The notes under the pieces were generated by a model. That model did no database searches and had not been told where the DNA came from. It saw nothing but the letters and a program-made list of their open reading frames with translations. Below, one piece after another: positions 3,700 through 59,959 of a stretch of 64,000 nt of DNA. Position 1 is the stretch's first letter, and every line of letters begins with the position of its first letter. Position numbers and translations under genes: made by a program. The stretch comes from a virus (Duplodnaviria; Caudoviricetes), in the IMG/VR virus record IMGVR_UViG_2883187667_000001, positions 1 through 64,000 of that record. One strand, given 5' to 3'.

Positions 3700-3921
3700 C
3701 TATCCGCACTCCGGTTTGTCGAAAAACCGTATATGCTCAACAGGAATATTACCTATGGTTCCGTCCTGTCGCTCAATAATTGCGGTGGTAAAATTCCCTG
3801 CCCCGCCCTCAAACTCTTCGTAATTGGTGCCAAATTGATGAAATATGGCCTCATATTGTCCTGTGAGAACATTTCGCCCGTTTTCACATTCGTACACGCT
3901 AACCATAACTTTTCTGATCAT
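3700..3921 (-). CDS. Phage hypothetical protein
   Basis: FHQFG..YEEFE.GAGNFTTAIIE..DG motif; good RBS. Confidence 0.65.
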   Translation of the reverse strand: MIRKVMVSVYECENGRNVLTGQYEAIFHQFGTNYEEFEGGAGNFTTAIIERQDGTIGNIPVEHIRFFDKPECG

Positions 3922-4018
3922 CTAATCCCCCTCTGCCGCCGCAATTTGCGGCGCTCGCTGTAATTGCGTCTGCTGTTTATCTGGATTTTGTCTATTGACC
4001 AGTAGCGGGAATGGGCGG

Positions 4019-4928: not shown

Positions 4929-6676
4929 GCGGCCTCCTGCATTTTTTGGTTTTCGATAACACCGCCCTCAATCCAGTACGATTGATTCACGCGACTCGGT
5001 AAATTCGGTGCGGATTTGAGAGTTCCCAGCACGATTGCCGTTTCAATTTCTCCCTGCAATGCCAACTCTTCCAGCCAGCAAAACAGGTCTTCACGACCCT
5101 TCAGGCTCAGCACGTCGAAACCGTCCAGCACGATGAATTTCAACCCGGACAAATGACTGATAGCCTCGGCGATCATTGCGTCAGCGCGCCACTTTGCGGA
5201 TACCGATAACAACCTGTAGTCGATGGGCTGCTCGCCTTCTTCGGCAGCGTAGATTTCCATATCCGGACCGATATTGATGCGCTTCCATTCGGCGATATTG
5301 GCCGAGTACGCAAGCCGCTCGTTAATCGGTTCGAGCGCCGCTTTCAGCATGTCGCCAGGTATGCCGTCGGGCGCCAGGGCGTCGGCGATCTTCGACCAGT
5401 CCGACACGCTGTTATGTGCGACCAGCGCTTTTTTTGTATTTACGTCCGCCTGTTCTGCAGCGGTTTTGGCTGATTTCAATGCGTCCAGCGCACGTCTTTT
5501 TTCCTGCTGTTCGGCCTGCAGTTTTTCTGCCGACTCACGGGCGGCGTCGATCTGCCCCGGCGCGGGCGCATCGCCGAGCGTTGAGTTGATCTCCTCCAGC
5601 TGCGCCTTCGCCTTCTTGGCTTCTTCAATGGCGCGCTTGCCGTTGTTTACGCAGGACTCCAGTAGTGCGTAGGATTTTTCGTGCGTCGCTATGCCGGACT
5701 CGGTAACCGGGTTTTCAACTTCCGGTAGTTCTGGATATGGTTCCAGCCTATCAACCTGAAAATACAGTGCTGCGCCGCACTCCGGGCAACCGTACATGGT
5801 TGGCGTGTGGCTTTTGATGCGTCCACGCATATCCTCGATTAAGGCGCGCTCGCGCTCCAGATCGGTTTGATCTATTCCGAGTTTGCGCTGCAGACGTTCA
5901 ATCATGCCGGCCTTCTGTTCCAGCTCGGCGCGGCGCTGTAGGCTGTCTTGATGCTGCTGCCATGACTGATTTAGCGCGCCCAGCGTTTGCTGAGCGATCG
6001 GCAGGCGTTCGCGATTAATAAAATCAATTTGCTTTTCCAGATCAACAATCGCTGCTTCGTCAAATTCAGGTTTTGACACCTGCCAACCATCCGCTTTTTT
6101 CTCGCCGTACACTTCGCCGGTTATCGCCTTCCATGCCGCTTTTTCATCTCGCGCACGTTGCGCCGCTTCCTTATTTGCGGCATCGAATCCAGAGCGTAGC
6201 ATCGGGAGTATGATTTCTGTTTTTGTTGCATCACAGCCTCTTTCCAGTAGCTTGGTTTTTACGAATTCCGGTTTGGCCGATACCCCCATTAAATCAAACA
6301 GGAGTGCGCGGCGACTGTTTGTATCGAGCCGAGCAAATCGGCTTGTAGCGAGCAAATAGGTCAGCCGCTCTGACGCATATTCGCCGACGCCAATCTTTAT
6401 TTGCCGCGGCGTTATCGACGCCGAAAACGTGCCAACATTCGTTTCTATGCAAATTTCAGCGCGCTTGTCGGTTGATCCATGGTTGATGAGCTCATGCGAT
6501 TCGCTCTTCTTGCTGACCCGGCACAGCTCGCCGGTCAGCGCCAATGCGATTGCGTCGCGGATACTGCTTTTGCCGGCTTCGTTGTTTCCAGCGATCACCG
6601 TTACCGGTACGCGTGCCGATATATTTACCGACCGCACGGCGAGAAAGTCGGTGATGCTGATACTTTGGATTTTCAT
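4925..6676 (-). CDS. SbcC/Rad50-like coiled-coil ABC ATPase
   Basis: Walker A GNNEAGKS, CPEC zinc hook in coiled coil, LS-S signature, VLDGFD Walker B. Confidence 0.85.
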   Translation of the reverse strand: MKIQSISITDFLAVRSVNISARVPVTVIAGNNEAGKSSIRDAIALALTGELCRVSKKSESHELINHGSTDKRAEICIETNVGTFSASITPRQIKIGVGEYASERLTYLLATSRFARLDTNSRRALLFDLMGVSAKPEFVKTKLLERGCDATKTEIILPMLRSGFDAANKEAAQRARDEKAAWKAITGEVYGEKKADGWQVSKPEFDEAAIVDLEKQIDFINRERLPIAQQTLGALNQSWQQHQDSLQRRAELEQKAGMIERLQRKLGIDQTDLERERALIEDMRGRIKSHTPTMYGCPECGAALYFQVDRLEPYPELPEVENPVTESGIATHEKSYALLESCVNNGKRAIEEAKKAKAQLEEINSTLGDAPAPGQIDAARESAEKLQAEQQEKRRALDALKSAKTAAEQADVNTKKALVAHNSVSDWSKIADALAPDGIPGDMLKAALEPINERLAYSANIAEWKRINIGPDMEIYAAEEGEQPIDYRLLSVSAKWRADAMIAEAISHLSGLKFIVLDGFDVLSLKGREDLFCWLEELALQGEIETAIVLGTLKSAPNLPSRVNQSYWIEGGVIENQKMQEAA

Positions 6677-9812: not shown

Positions 9813-9840
9813 TTTCTAAGCTGCCTATACGGCAGCGAAC
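9813..9840 (-). CRISPR. Solitary type I-F CRISPR repeat unit (candidate Racr)
   Basis: Minus strand reads GTTCGCTGCCGTATAGGCAGCTTAGAAA: 28 nt, CTGCC-GTATA-GGCAG Cas6f hairpin and 8-nt CTTAGAAA handle; no second repeat or cas operon seen. Confidence 0.9.
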
Positions 9841-18844: not shown

Positions 18845-19021
18845 CTGGGTCAGTTCTCCGTTTATCTGACTCGCAGTCTACAACATTTGACAAGCGCCTG
18901 CTTCCGTGGTTTGCTATTGGCTATCGCCCCTCATGGGCGATACGGGTTTGGTCGCCCGGTAGTTGCAGGCGCAGAAGTTACGCGCCGACAGGTTCGTGGC
19001 TTTTTTTATGCCCTCACGATT

Positions 19022-19101
19022 ATGGTGGGTGGCGTATGGGGAGGCCGCGAGGCCTGCCGGTTCCTGTACCCGGTCGACCAACCCCCTACGTCATCCGCCG
19101 C
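19022..19101 (+). ncRNA. c4-type antisense RNA (P1/P4 immI-like)
   Basis: Cloverleaf-like fold with GGCC-GCGA-GGCC hairpin; loops TCCTGTA and CGACCAA complementary to TACAGGA (19140) and TTGGTCG (within GTTTGGTCG at 18946 and 19107). Confidence 0.85.
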
Positions 19102-19153
19102 CCTGAGTTTGGTCGCTTCGGTCGGCGGTTACTTAACCGTACAGGAGCCCACC

Positions 19154-34872: not shown

Positions 34873-37800
34873 ATGTCACTATTAGAAAAGCTTTTCGGCG
34901 CAATCGCCACAAGAAGGAGCGCGCTTGATGCCGCCGCCCCGCCCTGCCCCGTCTTGGATGCCGTTACCAACCCAATTGAGCAACTGAAGCTGACCACCGA
35001 GCTGGGAAAAGTACGCAAGGAAATTGCTGGGCTGGGTGATTCGGCAATGGACGCCATGAAGCGCCTTGGGCTTACTACCCGGCTTGGCAAGATTCGCATG
35101 GAGCTGGGCGGACAACAGAATCAAGCTCTGGCTTTGGAGCCAGATACAGCGCCCCAGCAACCTGAACCAATTCAGGAAGCCCATGACGCCCCCGTGGAGA
35201 CCGTTCAATTCGGCCTGCAAGCAAGTGGCGTCAAGACCCGTGAAAAGATCAACGCGCAGGTGTCGGCCATAACCGACCAGATTCGCGCCGGCAGAAACCC
35301 TGCGACGCTGACCGACGATGAAATAGCGCTGCTCAAGCAATATTCCGGCAAGGGTGGGTTGACGATCAACTCCCAGCACGAGTATTACACCCCGCCCCAT
35401 GTTGCCGAAGGGGTGTGGGACGCGCTTAAAGCCAATGGCTTTGAAAATGGCAACGCTCTGGAACCGGCCACCGGCGCCGGTGTATTTCTGGCTACCAAGC
35501 CCAGCGGCGTCATTGCCACAGGTACCGAGATCGACCAGACCAGCGCCACTGTTGCGCAGATCTTGAACCCTGGGGACGTGGTATCTAACCAGTCATTCGA
35601 GTATCTGGCCGCGTCATCGCCCGATAACAGCTTTGACGCCGTGATCGGAAACGTACCCTTTGGCAACGCCCGAGGCCCGAGCGCGCACGATGACCCGCCC
35701 TACAAATCCGAAAAGCTGATCGAGCGCTATTTCGTGCAGCGCGTGATTGACAAGGTTAGGCCGGGCGGACTCATCTGCCTGGTTGTGCCGGTGAATATCA
35801 TTCAGGCAAAGGGCAAGGCTTGGGAGAAGTTTCGTATTGCCATCAGCAAGAAAGCCGAATTCCTGGGCGGTCACAAGCTGCCATCCAAGACGTTTTCGAA
35901 GCAAGGCACCGATGTCGTGGTCGACGTGCTGGTGATGCGCAAGCATGGCGCCGATTTTCTCGCGCAAGTGGATAACCTGCCGTTCGACACATTGACCGCG
36001 GCCAACGTGGTTTGGGCGGAGTTCATCGAGGGCCGCTACTGGCAAGGCGAAGGAAAGCGCTACATCAAGGGCGAGTTCGTACCCAAAGACCCGACCAAGT
36101 TCCGCGACTCGGACAAGGTTATCGCCGGCGAAAACATGACCGATGAGGCGCTAAAGCGCGCGCTTGCGGTTAAATTCCACTCTCGCATTGATTGGGAGAT
36201 GCTGGATAGCGCCGAACCGATTGTCCGCAACTACATAGACGGCGACCGCAAGGAGATCAATGGCATTGATTACGAAATGCAGGGCGGCGCGTGGGTAAAG
36301 ATAGCCTACACCGAAAGCAAAACCGAGCTGGATACGACTATTTACGGCGTTGACTCGTTGGACGCGCTGGAGTCCATCATGCAATCGGATTCCGGCATCC
36401 TGTCGTTGGGCTGGGGAAATATCGAAGCGGCATGCGATGCGTTTCCCAACCTCGTGCCGCAACATGTCAAGGACGCGCTAAATTTTTCTCGCTTGCAGTC
36501 GGATGACAACCAATGGCGGGCATTTCGCGGCGCGGTAATCGGCGCCAGGATCGAGTCGTACCTGAACAGCGGCAGCGATGACGCAAGTGATCTGGCCGAA
36601 CTGAAAGAATTGATCCTGCATGAGATCGTTAAATACGGACACCCCAACAGCGTTACCGGCCTGACCGTGGCCGGCAAGGAATCGAAGCGTTTAGGATTGT
36701 TCATCAACTCGGTGGATGAGGCGGGTAACTTCTCGCCGCTACTGGAAACCGGGACCATTCGCCAGGAAACAGCGGAATTTAATTCCGCCGATCCGGTATC
36801 GATCGTCACCTATCTGTTTGAGCAGAACCAGGACCCGGTAGAACTCAGTACGGTGCTGTCGATGTACGACGGAGAAGCCATGATGGAAGACCTGGGCGAC
36901 ATCACCAAAATACCGGGGCTGGCCGTGTCGCCCGATGGTTTCATCTACCCATTCGATCAATATTGCTCGGGCGATGTATTCCCCAAACTCCGGGCAATGC
37001 GCGAAGCGATGCTATCGGAGAAAGATCCGCGCATTATCGAGCAATACAAGCGCCAGATCGAAAGCATCGACGCCAAGCGCCGCAAAACGCCGACCGAAGA
37101 CATTACCTTCCGCATGAGGCAAAAGTGGTTCGATCAGAAAAACTACGTGATTGAATTCCTGCATGCCAATGGGTTTAAGGTTACGATTCAGTACGACGAA
37201 GAACGTGGTGAATTCGTTTCCCGGGGAACCGGTGGCGGACTGATACCGCAAATCGTCAATTACCTGAACGAAAAGCCGGTAATGGGCGGCGTCAAGGTCT
37301 CGGATTACAAGGACGCCATCAAGGCGCTGGAGGATCAATTCGACGCCTTCATGAAGTCGCACCCGAACAGCGAAGACCTGACCAATCAGTACAATGAAAA
37401 GTTTAACGGCTATGTCGATTTCAGCTACTCCTGTAGCGACCTGGGGCTGACCAATCTGGGCGACAGAATTAAGCCGCATACCTACCAGAATGAAGCCATT
37501 CGCCGACTGTCGCGTGAAGGAAAAGGGATTCTTGGTTTCGACGTGGGCCTGGGAAAAACCTTTACCTCCCTGGCGCTGCAAGCCTACAACGAGCAGATGG
37601 GGCGTTCCAAGCGCACCTGCATTGTTGTTCCTGACTCGGTGTTGGCAAACTGGTATCACGAACACAAGGCGTTCTATAAGGATACCTCACGCATGCTGGT
37701 TGTCGGCATGTCGCCGAAAACAAACAAGGATGGCACTGCGCAACGTGAGGCGATTGTCGACGAACAAGGCAATCCGAAGCTGCTCAACGGAGAACCCATA

Positions 37801-40800
37801 TACCAGGATGTCTTGACCAAGGACGACGCGGAAACCATCTGGGCGAAAATGCACAGCATTCCGCAGTCCGACTTGTCGCTGGTGATCATGTCGCATTCCC
37901 GCTTCGGCATGATACCGGTCAAGCAGCAGACCAAAAAGAAATACACCGAAGAAATGCTGTCGCGGGAGCTGATGAGCGCCGGGGATGCCGACAAGCTGAT
38001 GTCCGCAAATCCGGGCAAGCTGTCATATGCCGACGCGCAGAATCAAGACCGCATGGAGCAGAAATACTCCGACGAAGGCACGCGCAAACAGGACGCATAC
38101 CCGTATTTCGAGGACATGGGGTTTGATACCGTCATGCCCGATGAGGCGCATTTTTATAAAAACGCCTTCAAGCCGGGCAAGGAAGCGAGCCGCATCGCTT
38201 ATCTGCCAACGCCCGACCCATCGCAACGCGCCATCGACCTGTCGTTGAAACTGGCGCATATCCGCGAAATGAACGGCGGGCGCGGCGTTGTGTTGCTGAC
38301 GGCCACCCCGGTTACCAACAGCCCGCTTGAAATCTACAACATGTTGTCATTCCTGATTCCGGCAGAGGAATTCGAGCAGTTTGGCGTCTACACACCCGAT
38401 GATTTCGTGCGCGTGTTCGCCGATGTGCAACAGATCGAGAAGCTCAAGGTTTCCGGAGACGTGGGTAACGTCGACGCGATGGTCGGCTTCCAGAATCTGG
38501 ATGGCCTGCGTTCGCTGTTCCACAAGTACGCGATTATTAAAAATGCCGAGGACGTAAACCTTCCCCTCCCCGGCATCGAAGAAACCCAATCAACCGTTGA
38601 GCTATCCGAGGAACAGCAGGGTATCTATGTGGCGCTGCGCGCCGAGGCCAAGACGGCATCGTCTCCCAAGAAAGAGGAGCGTGAAACGGTACGACCGCTG
38701 TTCTCTATCATCCGCGACATGGACAGAACCACCACCGATCTGGACATGTATTACAAGCAGATCACCTTCATCTTCGCGCCCGCGCACAAGGAAGCGCTGG
38801 AAAAAGCGCTGGCGATGATGCCGAAAACGGTACAGCGCAAGGAGTACGACGCCGACAAGGAAAGAGATGTGGTCATGACGGTGCCGTTAGAGTACACGCT
38901 CACCGAAAAAGACGGCAAACTGGTGGTGGTCATGACCGACGCCGGCGAAGAGGACATGGTGGCCGCCATGCAGAAGGTCGGCATCCCGGAAGATGAAGTG
39001 GCGCACCCGATCACGCCAAAATATGCCGAACTGCTGAAGAACCTGAAAAAGGAACTGGATGTTGGCGGAAAGCAGCTAATTTTCATCGAGGAAAAAACCC
39101 AGCACCGGAAGCTGGCCCGGGTCATCGTGCATCACCTGCCCATTACGCTGGAGAACATCGGCATTATCAACGCCACGGATGCCTCCGGCGAAAAGCTACA
39201 GCGCATTTCAGACAGCTACAACGCCGGCAAGATCAAGATTGTTATCGCCAACAAGAAAGCGGAGGTCGGCGTCAACCTGCAAAAAGGCACGACGGCGATT
39301 CATCACCTGACGTTCCCCTGGGTTCCGGCCAGCATGCAGCAGCGCAATGGCCGCGGCGTCCGGCAAGGCAACACTGCGGCGACGGTCAATATCTACTACT
39401 ACATAGGGAAAGGATCGTTCGATCTGTTCCGCCTGAACCTGATCAATAAGAAAGGCAACTGGATTAACGATGTGCTGCGCGGCACCGAATCGAACATGGA
39501 ATCCAAGGGCGACGGCCACCTGTCGGCGGAGGATGTCATGGTGCTGCTGTCCGATAACCCGGAAGAGGCCAAGGCGCGCATGGAGGAAGCAAAAGCCAAG
39601 CGCGAAGCCGCAAAACGGGCTAAATCCGACAAAGCCATGGTCATCAACCTGAACCAGCTCATAGAGGCGCGGCGCAAACTCGCATTGCTGGATGGCTGGA
39701 AATCGGACGAAAAGACCAAGATAGAAGCGGAGCTGGCGAAACTGGCGGCGCGCATTGCCGCGCTTGAGGAAGATGATGGCGAGGAAGCCCGTAAAGACCG
39801 CTCCGATAGTAGGCGCAAGCAGTCCCTGCAGCAAAAAAAGCTCGATACCCTGGACGCCCGTTATCTGGCTATCGAGGAAAGCGCATCGGCGACAGTGAAA
39901 CAAAAAACCGTATTCCTGAAAGCCAAGGCGGCAGCAGGCGAACTACCCTTTGATGCGGGCGCTGTCGACAATCCGGAATCGGTGCTGGTTACCAACGATG
40001 GCCGGATAATAAAGCCGGGCATGGTGTTCGACATTAAAGACGCGAAGTACGACCGTGACCGCAAATTGACCAAAGGCCTAAATCTGGTTGAAGCCATTGA
40101 CGCATCGGCGCGCACCATCACCTTCAAGCCCAAGAGAGAAAATTACAGCTCGCGGCCCATCAGTCTGAACGATCTGCACAACTACGAGCTGAAGCCGGTA
40201 TCCATGACGATTGAGGAATGGGACTTGGCGAACAAACTCGCCAATAACCTAACGCTGAAGGATGTCATCGGGTTGGGGTTTGCCACCTACGACAAGTTCA
40301 AGGATCAAATCAAACTGGCCTATAGGGAATACTATATCGCCGATCTGGGGGACGGCACGGTAACACTGACCAGGGAAAGCTCCAGTTATCGTTCCCTGGT
40401 GGATGCCCGCTTCGTCTGGCCGGATGGCGGCAGCGAGGCCATTAAGCGCCAAGTGGTCAAGGATTACTACCGCAACATCACTGTTTATGGCACGGACTAC
40501 GGCGGCCCGATTATGGAAACCCTGTTCGGCGAGGATTGGAATGCCGCCATTCAGCAATATGCAGAAATGGCGACGCAGGAAGACGTGTTGCGTCAGGCGC
40601 AAGCCATTTTTGAGGCCGACGTTCAATCCAGGGGCATGGATGAATACCAGTTCATCGAGCGCAACAAGTGGTTCGTAGCCAATAATTGGCGCGAATATAC
40701 TGCAAAGATACCAGGCGACAATGTACAGGAGATAATGGATTGGGTGCGAACATTCATGGCGGACAAGATTGCGGCCTACGAAGCCGAGTCCCGGAGACGC

Positions 40801-41355
40801 CAGGACGAGGCCAACCAGAAAGCCGCCGAAGCGATTAAATCCAGCCCGGACTACAAAGAGATTCCAGAGGGTATTGCGCTAAAGCTCTCGGAAAAAGGCA
40901 TCACCGCCCTGTACAACACCGAATCGGTCTACATTAAGCGGAGCAATTGGCCGGCCTTCTCGCTGCTGCTGTTGCAGGACTCGAATGGCAAGCAAGGATT
41001 GCTGTACGCCGCCAAGGAGCGGCTGAAAAGCGCCTATGGCGCGCAATTCGCCGCCGATATATCGACAAAGTTCAGCGGCGCATGGTGGTATATGCCCTCC
41101 TCCCATAAGCTCGACGATATCGTTTCCGTTATACTCAACGATCAGGACGCGCCGGTGATCGAGACCAACAGGGACGCTCCGGAAAAGCTGAAAGTTCCTG
41201 CCGACAAAATAGCCGTTGGCGATGAACTGAATGGATTTGTCGTCCGATCGCTGGGTAAAACCTGGGCGGCTAAGGAATATGAAATCAGCGCCGTCAAGCG
41301 GGATTCGGGCTTCGATATCGAAGAAGGCGACTTGATCCAATACGCGAGATTTTAA
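34873..41355 (+). CDS. darB: DarB-like N6-methyltransferase + SNF2 helicase antirestriction protein
   Basis: EYYTP, LEPATGAG, GNVPF; DVGLGKT, DEAH, TATP, QRNGRGVRQGN. Confidence 0.9.
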   Translation: MSLLEKLFGAIATRRSALDAAAPPCPVLDAVTNPIEQLKLTTELGKVRKEIAGLGDSAMDAMKRLGLTTRLGKIRMELGGQQNQALALEPDTAPQQPEPIQEAHDAPVETVQFGLQASGVKTREKINAQVSAITDQIRAGRNPATLTDDEIALLKQYSGKGGLTINSQHEYYTPPHVAEGVWDALKANGFENGNALEPATGAGVFLATKPSGVIATGTEIDQTSATVAQILNPGDVVSNQSFEYLAASSPDNSFDAVIGNVPFGNARGPSAHDDPPYKSEKLIERYFVQRVIDKVRPGGLICLVVPVNIIQAKGKAWEKFRIAISKKAEFLGGHKLPSKTFSKQGTDVVVDVLVMRKHGADFLAQVDNLPFDTLTAANVVWAEFIEGRYWQGEGKRYIKGEFVPKDPTKFRDSDKVIAGENMTDEALKRALAVKFHSRIDWEMLDSAEPIVRNYIDGDRKEINGIDYEMQGGAWVKIAYTESKTELDTTIYGVDSLDALESIMQSDSGILSLGWGNIEAACDAFPNLVPQHVKDALNFSRLQSDDNQWRAFRGAVIGARIESYLNSGSDDASDLAELKELILHEIVKYGHPNSVTGLTVAGKESKRLGLFINSVDEAGNFSPLLETGTIRQETAEFNSADPVSIVTYLFEQNQDPVELSTVLSMYDGEAMMEDLGDITKIPGLAVSPDGFIYPFDQYCSGDVFPKLRAMREAMLSEKDPRIIEQYKRQIESIDAKRRKTPTEDITFRMRQKWFDQKNYVIEFLHANGFKVTIQYDEERGEFVSRGTGGGLIPQIVNYLNEKPVMGGVKVSDYKDAIKALEDQFDAFMKSHPNSEDLTNQYNEKFNGYVDFSYSCSDLGLTNLGDRIKPHTYQNEAIRRLSREGKGILGFDVGLGKTFTSLALQAYNEQMGRSKRTCIVVPDSVLANWYHEHKAFYKDTSRMLVVGMSPKTNKDGTAQREAIVDEQGNPKLLNGEPIYQDVLTKDDAETIWAKMHSIPQSDLSLVIMSHSRFGMIPVKQQTKKKYTEEMLSRELMSAGDADKLMSANPGKLSYADAQNQDRMEQKYSDEGTRKQDAYPYFEDMGFDTVMPDEAHFYKNAFKPGKEASRIAYLPTPDPSQRAIDLSLKLAHIREMNGGRGVVLLTATPVTNSPLEIYNMLSFLIPAEEFEQFGVYTPDDFVRVFADVQQIEKLKVSGDVGNVDAMVGFQNLDGLRSLFHKYAIIKNAEDVNLPLPGIEETQSTVELSEEQQGIYVALRAEAKTASSPKKEERETVRPLFSIIRDMDRTTTDLDMYYKQITFIFAPAHKEALEKALAMMPKTVQRKEYDADKERDVVMTVPLEYTLTEKDGKLVVVMTDAGEEDMVAAMQKVGIPEDEVAHPITPKYAELLKNLKKELDVGGKQLIFIEEKTQHRKLARVIVHHLPITLENIGIINATDASGEKLQRISDSYNAGKIKIVIANKKAEVGVNLQKGTTAIHHLTFPWVPASMQQRNGRGVRQGNTAATVNIYYYIGKGSFDLFRLNLINKKGNWINDVLRGTESNMESKGDGHLSAEDVMVLLSDNPEEAKARMEEAKAKREAAKRAKSDKAMVINLNQLIEARRKLALLDGWKSDEKTKIEAELAKLAARIAALEEDDGEEARKDRSDSRRKQSLQQKKLDTLDARYLAIEESASATVKQKTVFLKAKAAAGELPFDAGAVDNPESVLVTNDGRIIKPGMVFDIKDAKYDRDRKLTKGLNLVEAIDASARTITFKPKRENYSSRPISLNDLHNYELKPVSMTIEEWDLANKLANNLTLKDVIGLGFATYDKFKDQIKLAYREYYIADLGDGTVTLTRESSSYRSLVDARFVWPDGGSEAIKRQVVKDYYRNITVYGTDYGGPIMETLFGEDWNAAIQQYAEMATQEDVLRQAQAIFEADVQSRGMDEYQFIERNKWFVANNWREYTAKIPGDNVQEIMDWVRTFMADKIAAYEAESRRRQDEANQKAAEAIKSSPDYKEIPEGIALKLSEKGITALYNTESVYIKRSNWPAFSLLLLQDSNGKQGLLYAAKERLKSAYGAQFAADISTKFSGAWWYMPSSHKLDDIVSVILNDQDAPVIETNRDAPEKLKVPADKIAVGDELNGFVVRSLGKTWAAKEYEISAVKRDSGFDIEEGDLIQYARF

Positions 41356-41779: not shown

Positions 41780-42175
41780 TCACTTACCCATCGCTAAACG
41801 GGCGGCATCCGCCAGAAATCCACTCCGGGTAGAGTGATGGGCGCGGGCGTAATCGTCAATCTTCGCCAGCAGTCGGCGCGGCAGGGTGATATTAATTTTT
41901 TCGGAACGCCCATCGAAACGCGCGGTATCTACGTCGACCAAGGCCCATACGCCGCCCTCGAAGTCAGGGTTTAGCCTATGCTCGGCGATCGGTCGCGGAA
42001 CCGGAATTTCCTCATCGTCGTCGGTCATGCCTTCAAGGTGCAGGTCAATAGCTTCCGCCACACTGTTCAGGGCGTCGTCGAAGGTGTCGCCCGCCGAAAA
42101 ACATCCGGGAAGATCGGGAACGGTAACGCCAAAACGCACGCCGTCATCGGTATGCAATACCACGGGAAAGCGCAT
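41780..42175 (-). CDS. hicB: HicB antitoxin (RHH C-terminus)
   Basis: GVTVPDLPGCFSAGDT...EAIDLHLE; KINITLP...TRSGFL. Confidence 0.92.
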   Translation of the reverse strand: MRFPVVLHTDDGVRFGVTVPDLPGCFSAGDTFDDALNSVAEAIDLHLEGMTDDDEEIPVPRPIAEHRLNPDFEGGVWALVDVDTARFDGRSEKINITLPRRLLAKIDDYARAHHSTRSGFLADAARLAMGK

Positions 42176-42184
42176 AATAAACTC

Positions 42185-42385
42185 CTATTTCCACCCCGCC
42201 TGTTTCTCGATGCTGCGTAGCGCACCGGCAGGGATGTCGCTGTCAGGGTGCTTTACAGTCACCCGGCCCGGATTTGTCGGATGCTTGAATTGATGGTGCG
42301 AACCTCTGACTCTATCCAGATACCAGCCTTCCGACTCCAGGCGCTTGATGACTTGCTTGCTGTCCCTGGTGGTTATTATAACCAC
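42185..42385 (-). CDS. hicA: HicA toxin (start codon doubtful)
   Basis: VIKRLESEGW....RGSHHQFKHP...GRVTV.HP..DIP.G. Confidence 0.85.
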   Translation of the reverse strand: MVIITTRDSKQVIKRLESEGWYLDRVRGSHHQFKHPTNPGRVTVKHPDSDIPAGALRSIEKQAGWK

Positions 42386-42388: not shown

Positions 42389-42642
42389 TCAGTAATTGAC
42401 AATGTATTTGACAGGGACGCGGCTACCGGAAGATTACCACTGTCAACCTGTCAATTTTTACAGTTACGCCGATGCACGGCGCAGGGCTATAATGCCGGTG
42501 AGCAATCAGGAAACATAAGCCGTGCAGGGACAGCCGCTTCAACCGTTTACCGCAATAATCACAATAGCCGCCGATATGAGGCAAAGTTTTGCGTCATATA
42601 GGTGGGCGAATTTTTCGTTATGCCCCTTAGGGATTTGCACGA

Positions 42643-43491
42643 ATGCAAACTATAGATGAAGCCCTGATCGAAAAATTCAAACAAATCCTTTGTGAGCCCC
42701 CCTCCCCGGGACGCCAGAAGGAGCAGGTTGTACAGGACTTTCTTGAGCAACACACAGAGCTGATTCCGATTCCGAACCGCTTGAACCACCATCTCCATTT
42801 TCAATCTGTAGTGTCCAAGTTCCCACTTGGTACTGAACTGACTACAGACTACGTCTACATCACAAAAAGTTCTGACGTTTGGAGAGTAACCCTTGTCGAA
42901 TTGGAGTCTCCGGATAAGCGCATCTTTACCAGTGACGTTAAGAAAACGAATACTTCAGCAGAGTTCAATGCAGCGTTGAATCAGGTAAGAAGTTGGAAAC
43001 ACTACCTTGATGAAAACAAAGCCGAAGTAATTCGTCGCCTTGACCCGTTGCTACAACCAATAAACATGAGGCGGAACCCCATCGAGTTTCACTTCCAACT
43101 CATCATTGGCCGATCCGAAGACAAAAACCTAAGCGTGGAACGGAAGAAACACTTTAGAGGACTCATTGATGAAACTGGGATCGACCTTTTAACATTTGAC
43201 CAACTGATTGACTGGTACAGAAACGATCAGCGCTATAAGAAGCTTGTGCTGCGCCTCACGGGCGCGCAATACGCTTTCAAGCATATGCATTTCGAGCCGA
43301 CACAAATTCTTTCGTATGTGGGGCCTGACCGTCTATCCCTAAGCTCCGACGAGTTTGGGCGCTTAAAGGCTGCTGGATACGAAATGGACAAGTGGAGCAA
43401 GGGTGACTTGCTCACCTACAACGTCAAATTTGCAGAATCGACAAGAAACCAAGAGCTAAATAAAGGACGGCACTCTTTTTACTCTAAATAA
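42643..43491 (+). CDS. sduA: Shedu (SduA/DUF4263) anti-phage nuclease
   Basis: E...QDFLE, D, VELESP, A.NQV..W, LIIGR, LLTFDQL. Confidence 0.8.
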   Translation: MQTIDEALIEKFKQILCEPPSPGRQKEQVVQDFLEQHTELIPIPNRLNHHLHFQSVVSKFPLGTELTTDYVYITKSSDVWRVTLVELESPDKRIFTSDVKKTNTSAEFNAALNQVRSWKHYLDENKAEVIRRLDPLLQPINMRRNPIEFHFQLIIGRSEDKNLSVERKKHFRGLIDETGIDLLTFDQLIDWYRNDQRYKKLVLRLTGAQYAFKHMHFEPTQILSYVGPDRLSLSSDEFGRLKAAGYEMDKWSKGDLLTYNVKFAESTRNQELNKGRHSFYSK

Positions 43492-43532: not shown

Positions 43533-44315
43533 ATGAGCTGTTTAGCAATGAAGACCAAGGAAAGATCTATGTCTCACGATAATACAATCAAAAATTACAT
43601 GAAGTTTCTTTGGGGACCTCACTTAGCGGAGATTGTTTTTGAGTCGCCCAGCCGACAAGCAGTATCTAGCTCCGTTCAAAATGCTTCCGTAATTTCCGGG
43701 TTTAGTATTGCAGCTATAGCCATAATTTTGGCTACCACCCCTCTAACCTCACCTTTATTGATCACTCTTGTTTATTTATTTCTAGCATTAATGCTACTAT
43801 TTAAATGCGGCGATTGCTTGACCAATTCACTGCATTTTGATGACCCCATAACCAACCAGAAAGAACTAAAGTTTTATCGCAGGCAGGTTTACTGGGGATG
43901 GAGGCATTATAATCTGGCCATAATAATAATTATTGCATCGATAGCATTTTTTTCCATTATAAAAATACAAGACCAAAATATACCAAGCCACCTAAAGCTA
44001 TCCTTGTACACTGCAATTACCTTGGTTTTCGCATGGTGGGCATCATTTTGGTTTGTGGATTTATGGAAAACAATTATTTTCATTGTAAAATGTGAAGACA
44101 AGAATTACAGCAACTACTCGACAGAGCAAAAGAAGTTAATTGAGCGCAATATTCTTTTCAAGTTAATCTTGTATTCCGGTATAACTGTAACTTTAACTAT
44201 ATTATTAACTCTTTTGCCTTTTGGTTTTTTTTCTTCATGTGTAGATGTGCAGGCATTATTAATTACATTGATATTGTTTGCAGTCCTTCGAGCGATAGTA
44301 ATAGATACATTTTGA
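43533..44315 (+). CDS. AT-rich multi-pass membrane protein (~6 TM); start may be 43569
   Basis: Six hydrophobic stretches; much lower GC than flanks. Confidence 0.75.
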   Translation: MSCLAMKTKERSMSHDNTIKNYMKFLWGPHLAEIVFESPSRQAVSSSVQNASVISGFSIAAIAIILATTPLTSPLLITLVYLFLALMLLFKCGDCLTNSLHFDDPITNQKELKFYRRQVYWGWRHYNLAIIIIIASIAFFSIIKIQDQNIPSHLKLSLYTAITLVFAWWASFWFVDLWKTIIFIVKCEDKNYSNYSTEQKKLIERNILFKLILYSGITVTLTILLTLLPFGFFSSCVDVQALLITLILFAVLRAIVIDTF

Positions 44316-44434
44316 CCAGTCACTATGCTTGAGAGATTTATGATCTACGCTGGATTCTGCCTTGTTTTCTGTCTTGGATTAACAAAAAAAGCACCCACTT
44401 CGGCGCTAGACTCAGTCTCGTTTGTTGTGCCACG

Positions 44435-44521
44435 GCCTAACGAAGCGTTCGAAGCGGACGCGCTTGACGATCAGCCTACTTACCACAGTTTTTGCGCGTA
44501 CCGCTCAACTTTGCGTTGGTC
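44435..44521 (+). other. Integron attC site 1
   Basis: R'' GCCTAAC; inner boxes GTTCGAAGCGGACGCGC / GCGCGTACCGCTCAAC with extrahelical bases; R' GTTGGTC. Confidence 0.75.
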
Positions 44522-44544
44522 ATCTTGATACTGAGGCGCGAACG

Positions 44545-45036
44545 ATGAGCGAATTTGATACGCGGAAGAAGGCTCTACTAGAACCATTATTCATCGAAGC
44601 TGGCAACGCATTGATGGATTGCCAGACTTTCGAGTACGGCCTAACGCTTCTGCTCTTTCATCTTGCCAGACTCGATAGCATAACTCTCGACCCTCAAAAG
44701 GTTGCTCTAATTTTGGAGAACCAAGACAAGAAAACGGCAGGCCAGCTAATTGCCATGCTGAAGAAAAAGGCCAACGTAAGCGACGGTATCGAAAAAGCCT
44801 TGGAAGTTGCTCTCGCTTCACGCAACACACTTATCCATCGCATATTGATAGACAACGCAGAGAAACTTCCCCAAGCAGAAACGAGGGCATCGCTGCTTAA
44901 GGAAATTCGAAGCCTGCGCGCTAATGTTCAAAAGGCAGACAAGAAGTTGCGCCCGTTCATCCACGCATTTGGTCTCGAACTCGATGGCTTTGACAATCGC
45001 CAATTCGAAGCCGAAGCAAAGGCAACGTTTACGTGA
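44545..45036 (+). CDS. HEPN-like putative RNase (cassette gene)
   Basis: All-helical 163 aa; Q.FE and RNTLIH (Rx4H) motifs; flanked by attC sites. Confidence 0.65.
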   Translation: MSEFDTRKKALLEPLFIEAGNALMDCQTFEYGLTLLLFHLARLDSITLDPQKVALILENQDKKTAGQLIAMLKKKANVSDGIEKALEVALASRNTLIHRILIDNAEKLPQAETRASLLKEIRSLRANVQKADKKLRPFIHAFGLELDGFDNRQFEAEAKATFT

Positions 45037-45043
45037 ACCCGAT

Positions 45044-45109
45044 GCCCAACCCTTCAGTCGAGAGGGGCTGCGCAAAAGCGCGCAGCCCCTCACTTTTACG
45101 TTGTTGGGC
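45044..45109 (+). other. Integron attC site 2
   Basis: GCCCAAC...GTCGAGAGGGGCTGCGC-AAAAGC-GCGCAGCCCCTCAC...GTTGGGC. Confidence 0.85.
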
Positions 45110-45112
45110 ATC

Positions 45113-46039
45113 ATGATGAGGATCGTGCCATTTATTCTTGGCTTGGCGCTAGATATTGCACTCAAGCGCCTGACGCGGCCGCATACGGTCTACTCGAAGC
45201 TTGCGATAACAGCACTGCTCATCAGTGGCGGAGCCTTCATCACCCCATTTTGGCAACAAGCCGTTGAAGGTCTCATTGCGCCCTTGGACAATCCAGGATG
45301 CACCGGCCCACTTCCATCTATCGCATCAGGTTCGATTTTTCTCTTGTTATCCTTTTTGTTTGGATCTATATCGCAAAGGCATTCAACGCAACAACGGGAA
45401 TCACTTGTAGACACAAAATCGCTCAGTGGTCCTATCTCAATTGGGCAGGCGCAAGTTTATTGCTACTGCGGGTCGGTATTGGCAATGTCAAACATTGATG
45501 TGGTCATTACCTCAGAGAATAGAGATCTACATCTTGGAAGTATTAACGGCACTTCTGTTTCAGGAAGAATTAGGCGACTTGCCGCTTCATATAACAGCGA
45601 TGGAACACTAAGCGCCGACCATCTGCTTAATCACACCATCCAATGGAAATCGAATCAGCATCACAAGGGACCATACAGATTGGGGCAATGCATAGTCTCT
45701 CCCCCATTTAATGCCAAACGTCGCGGCATCAAATCCATAGTTCATGCAATCACACTTGAAAAACGTGACTCAGGATTAAATATCGTAGAGGAATCTGCGA
45801 ACCGAGAAGTAATCGATTTTGTTATCAAACATTGCAACGTACAACAGTATTCTTCCTTTTTTCTACCAATATTTGGACTCGGTAGTGGTGGCCTATCTCG
45901 AGATGATGCGATCTCCAGAACATTAACCCCTCTCATTGCCAAGCTTCGTACCACGGCTGCGCCCCTTTCTGTTTATGTGGGAACCTATCGTCTCTCTGAT
46001 GCAGCAATTGCTTCGACATTTTTGCTGAGAGCGCAATGA
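45113..46039 (+). CDS. 2TM + Macro-domain protein (cassette gene)
   Basis: Two N-terminal hydrophobic helices; Macro motifs IDVVITSEN, SVSGRI, GIKSIVHA, FLPIFGLGSGG. Confidence 0.75.
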   Translation: MMRIVPFILGLALDIALKRLTRPHTVYSKLAITALLISGGAFITPFWQQAVEGLIAPLDNPGCTGPLPSIASGSIFLLLSFLFGSISQRHSTQQRESLVDTKSLSGPISIGQAQVYCYCGSVLAMSNIDVVITSENRDLHLGSINGTSVSGRIRRLAASYNSDGTLSADHLLNHTIQWKSNQHHKGPYRLGQCIVSPPFNAKRRGIKSIVHAITLEKRDSGLNIVEESANREVIDFVIKHCNVQQYSSFFLPIFGLGSGGLSRDDAISRTLTPLIAKLRTTAAPLSVYVGTYRLSDAAIASTFLLRAQ

Positions 46040-46530
46040 CCCCCCATCTCGCAGAGGATGTTGCATCGCTCTTATGTCGGCTAGATGAGCGCAGGACAGG
46101 AGCAATTATAGGTTACACAAGCGGAGTCTTTGATCTTTTTCATCAAGGGCATCTCAACTATCTAAACGCATGCAAACTGGCTGTGGATGTATTGGTTGTC
46201 GGTGTAGACGCCGATATCTTGGTTCGGATTAGAAAGGGCAGTCATCGTGCTTACGAAAAATGCAACACAAGGGTCGCCCATGTACAAGAGACAGGCCTTG
46301 TAGACGAGTTATTTATCAAGACGAATTCCTCCGACGAGATAATTCCCATCATTCGACCGCATAGATACTTTATTCCAAGCAACCGCCAAATCAGCGCTCT
46401 GCGATCCCAACTTCTAAACGACTTATCAGTACGACTTGATGTGCTTCCTTATACAAGTGGGGTATCTACAACGAAAATGGCACGGCTAATTGGAATTTCT
46501 TCGGATAGCAGTGACTTTGAAAATAAGTGA
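46036..46530 (+). CDS. HxGH cytidylyl/adenylyltransferase (TagD/HldE-domain-II-like)
   Basis: GYTSGVFDLFHQGHLNYL, LVVGVDAD, YTSGVSTT; ATGA-coupled to Macro gene. Confidence 0.9.
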   Translation: MTPHLAEDVASLLCRLDERRTGAIIGYTSGVFDLFHQGHLNYLNACKLAVDVLVVGVDADILVRIRKGSHRAYEKCNTRVAHVQETGLVDELFIKTNSSDEIIPIIRPHRYFIPSNRQISALRSQLLNDLSVRLDVLPYTSGVSTTKMARLIGISSDSSDFENK

Positions 46531-46541
46531 ATTCGATCGAT

Positions 46542-46590
46542 GCCCAACCCATCATTCCACCGGACTTGCGCGAAAAACCACGCATGAAGC
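46542..46590 (+). other. Truncated attC site 3
   Basis: GCCCAAC-CCATCATTCCACCGGACTTGCGCGAAAAACCACGCA left half present, right half missing. Confidence 0.65.
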
Positions 46591-46632: not shown

Positions 46633-46659
46633 TAAGCCCGCCCCACGCGGGCTTTTTTG
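46633..46659 (+). terminator. Intrinsic terminator closing the cargo island
   Basis: AAGCCCGC-CCCAC-GCGGGCTT followed by T run. Confidence 0.75.
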
Positions 46660-46703
46660 CGCCCGCAAAAAATAACCACCCCGCACCCCGCCCCCACCAA
46701 AAC

Positions 46704-46744
46704 CGGAAAACAGCGCAAAAACCGCCCTACCCTCACCCAAAACT
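46704..46744 (+). promoter_or_regulatory. Late promoter motif (before capsid)
   Basis: CGGAAAACAGCGCAAAAACCGCCCTACC...CAAAACT, near-identical to copy at 55370. Confidence 0.75.
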
Positions 46745-46802
46745 ATCACCTGAACCTCGGCGCGTCGCCGAACACAGTCTGATAACTTTTGGCGAGATCG
46801 AT

Positions 46803-59185: not shown

Positions 59186-59448
59186 TGGCCGGTATAGCAC
59201 GCGTAAACGTGGACAGCGCCGGCGGTGTGATTACCGGGGCGCTGGCACCAAAGGTGCGAGTAAACGGCGCGCCGATCGCGGTTGTCGGGGCGACGGTTGC
59301 GCCGCACGGACAGTATCAGCATGCGGCGCCGGTTATGGTTCAAGGATCTTCCAAAGTCCGCGCGGGCGGACTGCCGGTATGCCGCGCCGGAGATGAGGCT
59401 AGCTGCGGGCATGTGGCATCCGGTTCGGATACAGTTTCAGCAGCATAG
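59185..59448 (+). CDS. PAAR-domain spike tip
   Basis: VNGAPIAVVG..V.PHG..H....GS..V..GG.PVCRAGD.ASCGH. Confidence 0.9.
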   Translation: MAGIARVNVDSAGGVITGALAPKVRVNGAPIAVVGATVAPHGQYQHAAPVMVQGSSKVRAGGLPVCRAGDEASCGHVASGSDTVSAA

Positions 59449-59458
59449 GGAAAAACAG

Positions 59459-59959
59459 ATGAGCATCCAACACTTATTTTCATTCGCGGACTTATCGGTA
59501 AAGGACAAGGCGGCAAAGGCCGCGATGAAGTATTTCTCGCGCGCCGGCGCCAATGTCGCGCAGCAGGACGTTGACGGCAAAATCAAGCGGACGTCAGGTA
59601 TCAACTACCGGGAAATGACTTTCACCTTCGATGATTCTCAAACTGTGGTAATGCGCATCAACGCGACGGGCGACGTATTCCAGGTACTCATCAACGGCGC
59701 GGTTACGCCGATCAAGAACCAAAGCGACCAGGTTGCGGCCATCGCCGAAATCGTGCAGAAGCTCAACGCCGGACGCATGAAGTTTCAGCAAAAGTTGGCC
59801 AAGGCGCAGGTGGCTATTCCGCCCGGCATCAAGACGGCGGCTCCGAGGATGCTGGAGGTACTCACGCAAAAGCGCGATGGGTTGAAATCCGCGATTCAGG
59901 CGGTCGTGGAGGAAATTGCCATCGTGACCGGATCGAACACACAAGCGGCGGGCGAATAG
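59459..59959 (+). CDS. hdf: Hdf-like (DarA-related) head protein
   Basis: F.DSQTV..RIN.TGDVFQV.ING...KFQQKL resembles P1 Hdf. Confidence 0.65.
   Translation: MSIQHLFSFADLSVKDKAAKAAMKYFSRAGANVAQQDVDGKIKRTSGINYREMTFTFDDSQTVVMRINATGDVFQVLINGAVTPIKNQSDQVAAIAEIVQKLNAGRMKFQQKLAKAQVAIPPGIKTAAPRMLEVLTQKRDGLKSAIQAVVEEIAIVTGSNTQAAGE

Follow-up and report, generated by a model that had tools for sequence, protein, structure and literature searches.

A block of plus-strand sequence at positions 44435-46584 of the stretch analysed here (the window: 64,000 nucleotides, positions 1 to 64,000 of virus record IMGVR_UViG_2883187667_000001) comprises two full attC sites followed by a third that lacks its 3' half, with genes in the same orientation. 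These units are very probably genuine integron cassettes with defence-like cargo, assembled by an integron integrase (IntI) in the integron of the host lineage, from which a piece of the array then entered the phage. The host genome is a single contig (C1) of 4.70 Mb in which the window occupies C1:2309037-2373036, and by its gene content the element in which the array resides is a P1-like prophage, a distant relative of P1, of a methanotroph. A preliminary description had reported an attC array without IntI inside a prophage, and this was upheld by an attC covariance model, by the spacing of the sites and by P1-type genes on both sides. The features of the block are as follows:

44435-44521 (+): attC site 1, complete; R'' GCCTAAC at 44435-41, R' GTTGGTC at 44515-21
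44545-45036 (+): cassette 1 gene, 163-amino-acid (aa) all-helical HEPN-like protein with R93-N94-x3-H98
45041-45112 (+): attC site 2, complete; R'' GCCCAAC at 45044-50, R' GTTGGGC at 45103-09, 12-bp GC stem at 45062-91
45113-46039 (+): cassette 2 gene a, 308-aa membrane-anchored macrodomain protein
46036-46530 (+): cassette 2 gene b, 164-aa HxGH nucleotidyltransferase (Pfam CTP_transf_like, 1.4e-7)
46539-46584 (+): attC site 3, truncated; R''-L''-loop half present, L'-R' gone

An attC site is an imperfect hairpin built from an R box, an unpaired spacer and an L box; at the L box the R''-L'' arm has additional bases, the loop is variable, and the core consensus sequences RYYYAAC (R'') and GTTRRRY (R') lie at opposite ends. 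Both cores of site 2 match this consensus in 7/7 positions, as does the R'' core of site 1 (GCCTAAC), and site 3 keeps the R'' core GCCCAAC with R' absent. The four 10-mers given in the preliminary description were all found at the positions it assigned to them: GTTGGTCATC at 44515-44524, GATGCCCAAC at 45041-45050 and again at 46539-46548, and GTTGGGCATC at 45103-45112. The complementarity of cassette ends that it had noted was likewise recovered. The start of each cassette after the G/TT crossover complements the R'' core of its own attC, in 9/10 positions for cassette 1 (44515/45041, by reading) and 10/10 for cassette 2 (45103/46539), and a repeat search returned as 10/10 complementary pairs 45103-12/46539-48 and, within site 2, 45041-50/45103-12. 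This is as expected of units that were once circularised and inserted at G/TT by IntI. The extra GTT ascribed to site 2 is present as a tandem GTT GTT at 45100-45105, and genes do start after the crossover GTT, with an ATG at 44545 (30 nt on) and at 45113 (10 nt on). Site 2 folds at -27.9 kcal/mol (z -7.35), an energy equalled by none of 200 shuffles, and on either strand its GC-rich inner helix of 12-13 bp is separated from an outer helix of 10 bp by two unpaired spacers, each of 11 nt; judged by reading, the '' arm may also have a bulge of 3 nt. Its exact pattern has a single occurrence in the host genome, and its left half forms a 38-nt direct repeat (76%) with that of site 3.

The sites were scored with a covariance model of our own (R1), distinct from that of IntegronFinder. 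Integron integrase (TIGR02249) was found above cut-off in 28/64 genomes of the host's taxonomic family, and R1 was derived from nine integrons of the host's relatives, taking for each 20 kb in the direction of the cassettes. Candidate sites were picked by the presence of both cores, a paired outer helix and an energy per base below -0.2, which gave 19 attC sites for training from six of the nine regions (three yielded none). No sequence from the host genome was included, one qualifying site of the host's own integron being deliberately excluded. The R1 consensus has 15 pairs, 7 of them with compensatory changes. A scan of the entire 64-kb window on both strands with filters off produced 12 matches at E<=10, headed by site 1 (44432-44524, +; 24 bits, E 1.2e-4) and site 2 (45041-45112, +; 19 bits, E 2.8e-3), with the third match at only 9.9 bits (E about 1). 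The two complete attC-like sites of the preliminary description therefore passed the covariance-model check that it had proposed. With a sequence profile of the left half (R''-L''), sites 1, 2 and 3 were window matches 1, 2 and 3, all on the plus strand, at E-values of 0.0055, 4 and 7.2, of which only that of site 1 is individually significant. Rfam at gathering thresholds found only C4 and one CRISPR repeat across the whole window and no attC match. A genome-wide RYYYAAC...GTTRRRY heuristic was rejected as too crude, giving 61 matches per strand and no cluster.

The host genome contains a single above-cut-off TIGR02249 match, at C1:3623502-3624446 (-), which scores 495 bits against a cut-off of 265, covers model positions 1-315/315 and is stop-free. 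All 19 matches listed for this family lie outside 2309037-2373036, in agreement with the reported lack of an integron integrase in the window. A cluster of attC sites lacking integron integrases (CALIN) is described in the text of 10.1101/2024.07.02.601686 as at least two nearby attC sites on one strand with no IntI close by; sites 1 and 2, both on the plus strand and about 520 nt apart, with the nearest above-cut-off IntI 1.25 Mb from the window, constitute such a cluster. No complete integron is present in the window. The complete integron of the genome, C1:3623502-3632053, has the following order outward from intI:

1: attI-like sequence ACGTTGGGC, at about 3624600
2: first cassette, ending in attC 3625212-3625277 (R1 42.9 bits)
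3: cassette with a tRNA-like element and a gene with RN...H
4: attC 3626281, interrupted by an insertion sequence (IS)
5: attC 3629403, carrying a group II intron insertion (Rfam D1-D4-3 120.6 bits, Intron_gpII 40.9 bits)
6: small cassette of two genes
7: attC 3631991-3632056 (32.4 bits)

The tRNA-like gene of the second cassette (ARAGORN; C1:3625324-3625399, L059 878-953) has an abnormal 2-base anticodon and sits just upstream of the AT-rich open reading frame (ORF) with the RN...H motif. One LexA box only, with one mismatch, was found upstream of the host intI.

The preliminary description had suggested comparison with the attC family of the host integron, and the window sites proved near-identical to its types. 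Site 1 has 83-94% identity to five host attC copies, the integron's included: 94% (36 nt) to the IS-interrupted attC in the integron, and 83-91% (74-77 nt) to three copies located at 765.5, 2101.5 and 3723.8 kb. For site 3, it is the left half that has 88-91% identity to host sites, at 3229.5 kb and 3629.4 kb. On the strength of this near-identity, the attC sites of the prophage are members of the host's own attC family. Clusters of attC sites occur at several host loci; a second cluster lies at 2.096-2.102 Mb in IS-rich DNA.

The dispersed host copies of the site-1 type are informative in a further respect. Three of them share 94-98% identity over 0.3-1.5 kb from their attC-like start, and the shared downstream 1.5 kb corresponds to an IS of the IS110 family, which has inverted ends and a transposase beginning ...IGIDLAK. 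Beyond the far end of this element R' returns, clearly in the 2101-kb copy (ACGTTAGAC) and with one mismatch in the 3723-kb copy, and uninterrupted copies of the site-1 type also exist (x2512, x2096 and window site 1). The invasion of site-1-type sites by this attC-targeting IS independently suggests that sequences of this type count as attC in the host. Four ends of the IS110-family element were located (C1:765496, 2101551, 3719541 and 3723858), and inspection of the 765-, 2101- and 3723-kb copies placed it each time at the same attC position, immediately ahead of R'. We take this element to behave like the IS1111-attC group. A group II intron splits the R' of four attC sites (C1:2099073, 3629467, 3222298 (-) and 3229478 (-)); its 5' end is identical in all four, and its integron copy was confirmed by Rfam. 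Both invaders resemble the IS1111-attC group and the group IIC-attC introns in their fixed-position invasion of host attC sites of the window's types; the window's own attC sites differ in being uninvaded. Five near-identical tyrosine-recombinase genes, each with an internal stop, were also noted (C1:2095626, 2105355, 2399710, 2509613 and 3222533). Three of the five adjoin attC clusters, and at the two copies examined beside the 2.096-2.102 Mb cluster a 360-aa ORF adjoins the recombinase gene.

The cargo of the block was characterized by family and structure searches. The 163-aa product of cassette 1 is one of a broad family that has no name, with 259 cluster representatives at E<=1e-3, and R93, N94 and H98 are invariant across 48 sequences. 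These residues fit the HEPN signature, Rx4-6H within an all-helical domain, and the AlphaFold2 (AF2) model of this protein is all-helical with a pLDDT of 96.9. Weak HepT-like matches in Pfam were obtained for 7/48 family members (best E 2e-4), the window's protein itself being without one. Foldseek returned nothing for the model at E<=1e-3, and VIA-align placed HEPN/Csm6-titled entries at Z 5.9-6.8, a range usual for helical bundles. A HEPN-like paralogue (27% identity; C1:2098542-2099003) lies between two host attC sites, the second of which is intron-invaded.

The two genes of cassette 2 are the most novel lead and a candidate defence system. The 308-aa protein has helices at 4-21, 26-43, 46-55 and 69-90 followed by a C-terminal macrodomain with the conserved glycines G255, G257 and G259 (AF2 pLDDT 85.3); its model matches MacroD/Af1521/YmdB-type structures in Foldseek (E 8e-11, TM-score about 0.8), and many homologues from scattered Proteobacteria carry PF01661. 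The 164-aa protein has a cytidylyl/adenylyltransferase fold with relatives in the PDB and is nearest to RfaE/HldE domain II (TIGR02199 at 2.6e-17, below cut-off). The two genes are adjacent in 17/18 metagenomic loci, down to 31% identity, and in the 18th the contig stops 75 nt past the macro gene. In one of the loci, L066, the pair forms one cassette between attC 3912-3983 and attC 5383-5444 within an array of 12 plus-strand R1 matches, and in two others, L062 and L063, an attC directly follows the pair. PADLOC gave no match for either gene, Pfam gave no TIR domain in any of the five block proteins, and a limited literature search found no paper uniting macro domain, cytidylyltransferase and anti-phage function. 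'Macro' has no occurrence (0) in the main text of 10.1101/2024.07.02.601686. For TM-macro ThsA of Thoeris, the text of Shi et al. 2024 (PMC11204291) describes ligand binding that oligomerises the macrodomain and clusters the transmembrane (TM) domains. The 308-aa protein resembles this ThsA, as presented there, in its N-terminal TM helices and C-terminal macrodomain; the likeness is one of architecture only, and the partner here is an HxGH nucleotidyltransferase (CTP_transf_like) rather than the TIR protein ThsB. In a speculative working model, the nucleotidyltransferase would make an ADP-linked ligand that is sensed by the macrodomain protein. By extension, the pair might be a new two-gene signalling and abortive-infection system, like TM-macro Thoeris with the TIR component replaced, that spreads as a single cassette and, when carried by a phage, could be reloaded by the host integrase through intact attC, making the prophage a mobile integron outpost; as a whole we regard this proposal as rather unlikely.

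The edges of the block and the features beside it are as follows:

41780-42385 (-): hicB-hicA toxin-antitoxin pair (Pfam HicB_lk_antitox 2e-49, HicA_toxin 3e-22), left of the block and outside the array
42608-42624 (+): possible boundary on the left; the sequence GAATT...CGTTATGCC is similar to that at the L'-R' end of host attC 3631991
42643-43491 (+): sduA, Shedu defence nuclease family (PADLOC SduA PDLC00378 5.2e-90, nearly full length; 45.9% GC)
43533-44315 (+): near-orphan 260-aa multi-pass membrane ORF (35.8% GC)
46634-46659 (+): intrinsic terminator, conserved in related phages ahead of the capsid-side gene (7 related loci aligned)

At the right edge, the loci with the closest cassette 2 homologues (L062 and L063, 82% protein identity) have an intact attC (R1 38.6 bits) after the pair. 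Site 3 tracks this attC through R'', L'' and loop to about 46584 and then diverges, in keeping with the truncation of the third attC claimed beforehand, and the phage backbone resumes at the terminator, about 50 nt past the divergence. As L'-R' is lost, the right junction is not a G/TT crossover and hence not an IntI product. At the left edge, the start GTTATGCC of a putative cassette 0 complements the R'' region of site 1, at the end of that cassette, in 7/8 positions. The array therefore probably extends left to about 42617, with the Shedu gene and the membrane ORF as a two-gene cassette 0, as judged from these motifs. The extent given in the preliminary description, 44435..46590, would leave this probable further cassette outside. 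The sduA product matches Pfam SduA_C (DUF4263) at 6.7e-24 and 85.3 bits against a cut-off of 27, which places it in Shedu; neither viral contigs nor a sample of 400 other genomes from across the host's class yielded a Shedu homologue. The membrane ORF has no Pfam, PADLOC, PHROG or NCBIfam match and just 2 homologues in 5.8 billion proteins. The possibility that the left edge and site 3 are the halves of one attC, opened from a circle, was tried and rejected, as their duplex (-11.3 kcal/mol) ranked 4121 of 12,792 positions; in the control, site 2 recovered its partner at rank 1.

The phage nature of the surroundings was assessed by scanning 45 window ORFs against PHROGs, and P1-type families were found on both sides of the block. 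Upstream are DarB-like and Ulx-like proteins, and downstream phrog_1014 (2.5e-123), tail sheath, PmgG/PmgB-like proteins, endolysin, tube, an Hdf-like protein and portal; a C4 antisense RNA is present at 19018-19105 (58.9 bits). The GC content of the block is 44.7%, that of its flanks 52.7% and 55.8% and that of the genome 54.0%. The phrog_1014 protein has relatives of 63-68% identity in 4 viral contigs, in 5 genome contigs, which are Methylococcaceae and 'uncultured proteobacterium' metagenome-assembled genomes, and in 1/63 other genomes of the family. These ten loci, 87.5 kb in all, share a conserved capsid-sheath module, and no match was obtained in them for any of nine non-structural queries (DarB C-terminus, Ulx, HicB, HicA and the five block proteins); R1 gave a single weak 44-nt match over the same sequence. 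The comparison of this slot among related phages, proposed in advance, hence found none of the five block proteins in the relatives, and by this comparison the block is a lineage-specific acquisition in a variable slot. A megablast search with 12.6 kb against 50,697 phage records gave no match.

Several further features of the prophage were observed. The DarB-like protein, a 2160-aa methyltransferase/helicase antirestriction protein (34873-41355, +), is followed by the Ulx-like protein, and together with the Hdf-like protein (59282-59959) these form a P1-type capsid-borne antirestriction set. The hicAB genes have a strong promoter-like site (11/12) at 42402-42375, and operator-like repeats beside them (42426-42469) recur at C1:2378667 and 2380767, outside the window. 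A partial second P1-like late region lies in IS21-rich DNA at C1:2072000-2077000 (L082 6058-10565, -), roughly 20 kb away from the second attC cluster (2.096-2.102 Mb), and encodes an Hdf-like protein, a tail protein and an endolysin with bit scores close or equal to those of the window. Late-promoter-like repeats at 46698-46753 of the window recur in this second region and at about 55364 and 56796 in the window. A solitary CRISPR repeat is also present in the prophage (9813-9840, -; Rfam CRISPR-DR4, 44.7 bits), and the same repeat makes up a 39-repeat host array at C1:4651175-4653454 (40 matches at <=4 mismatches); such a phage-borne solitary repeat might counter the host CRISPR system.

Several observations weigh against reading the block as a cassette array. 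The R' core of site 1, GTTGGTC, deviates from GTTRRRY at one position (6/7), and the isolated site folds weakly (z -1.3). Isolated site 3 has no significant fold (z +0.2), so that the case for sites 1 and 3 depends on model and sequence evidence. The R1 E-values are modest and, owing to a short calibration, rough; site 2 is not among the matches listed in the whole-genome R1 scan, the full model misses site 3, and R1 truncated-match scans of both block edges scored about 0, by a method that handles cut matches poorly. Downstream of the macro-nucleotidyltransferase pair, an R1 match was present in just 3/13 loci having at least 150 nt there, and the pair therefore also occurs outside R1-detectable arrays. 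The left boundary is unproven, the right-half (L'-R') profile being powerless in that it misses even known right halves, and no plus-strand promoter-like site was found upstream of sduA. Part of this would fit ordinary terminators or REP-like hairpins between phage morons, with core motifs arising by chance: the folds of sites 1 and 3 are weak, and the stem of site 2 with its T-rich tail was also flagged as terminator-like. An independently trained model nevertheless ranks both complete sites at the top of the window, near-identical sites stand beside IntI in the host integron, the macro-nucleotidyltransferase pair is attC-flanked in unrelated arrays, and attC-targeting IS and introns invade the same types of site; we consider chance hairpins highly improbable. 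It is still harder to credit that site 1 is merely the end of a repeated 1.5-kb mobile element with an attC-like start, as the 94-98% identity of three host copies over 0.3-1.5 kb might suggest. That 1.5 kb is an IS110-family IS with inverted ends of its own, and site 1 as a repeat terminus was rejected on the reappearance of R' past the IS, clear in one copy and with one mismatch in another, and on the uninterrupted copies.

If the cassettes are genuine, the manner of their entry and their present mobility still have to be weighed. They may form a fossil array, which entered by illegitimate or homologous recombination with host attC loci and now consists of fixed phage genes that are no longer moved by IntI. 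Site 3 is broken within the site and not at G/TT, the left edge has an R'-like core at most, the attC clusters at several host loci are possible donors, and the disruption of the host integron by an IS and a group II intron suggests low recent activity. On the other side, neither site 1 nor site 2 lacks a part, both are scored as attC by R1, and the host IntI is intact. A fossil array is thus a serious possibility, to which we give somewhat less than even weight. Under the preferred reading, that of genuine IntI-assembled cassettes, assembly would have taken place within the integron of the host lineage, a piece of that array would then have moved into the phage slot, and at least one non-IntI event would have made or remodelled the right junction, because site 3 is without L'-R'. 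The earlier proposal that the phage captured host cassettes is supported by the attC family shared with the host; the right junction, cut inside site 3, would reflect a process other than IntI. The suggestion that a host IntI might still shuffle the cassettes agrees with the intact host IntI and applies at best to cassette 1 and to new insertions; cassette 2 is excluded by the loss of L'-R' from site 3. Only the HEPN-like cassette 1 looks excisable, as it alone has two intact flanking sites, and expression of IntI could let sites 1 and 2 acquire further cassettes through attC x attC recombination.

Cassettes carrying anti-phage systems have reportedly also been described in a preprint on mobile integrons (10.1101/2024.07.02.601719). 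In the text of Darracq et al. (10.1101/2024.07.02.601686), Shedu is the second most frequent defence system in sedentary chromosomal integrons, and HEPN-like single-gene systems are described. The present cassettes resemble those in their compact anti-phage cargo and differ in location, a prophage here and bacterial integrons there. Among 10,705 phage genomes, Qi et al. 2023 (PMC9892861) report 17 CALINs, 3 complete integrons and 1 In0 element. Their cases include Vibrio prophages that hold pieces of the host's sedentary integron and a mosaic of class 1 integrons in an E. coli P1 isolate, and IntI1 recombination was demonstrated for phage attC sites. The window shares with those phage CALINs a phage-borne array of attC sites and cassettes with no adjacent IntI. 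It differs from what is presented there in its methanotroph host, in its phage, a distant P1 relative, in having one truncated site, in an attC type that is that of the host's chromosomal integron, and in its defence-like cargo, in place of methyltransferases and toxin-antitoxin modules (PMC9892861). Phage CALINs and integron defence cargo are thus already published, and the present array is a further example. It is distinguished by the presence of the host integrase and the matching attC family in the same genome, by defence-type cargo in a phage-borne CALIN and by the conserved macro-nucleotidyltransferase cassette.

By analogy with defence cargo in integrons, the prophage probably gains the exclusion of superinfecting phages or competitors for its lysogen, and on transfer it would bring the cassettes to new hosts. 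One element here joins two known reservoirs of anti-phage genes, integron cassettes and the accessory slots of prophages. As host integrase and matching attC family are found in one cell, phage-mediated cassette transfer is directly testable in an environmental methanotroph.

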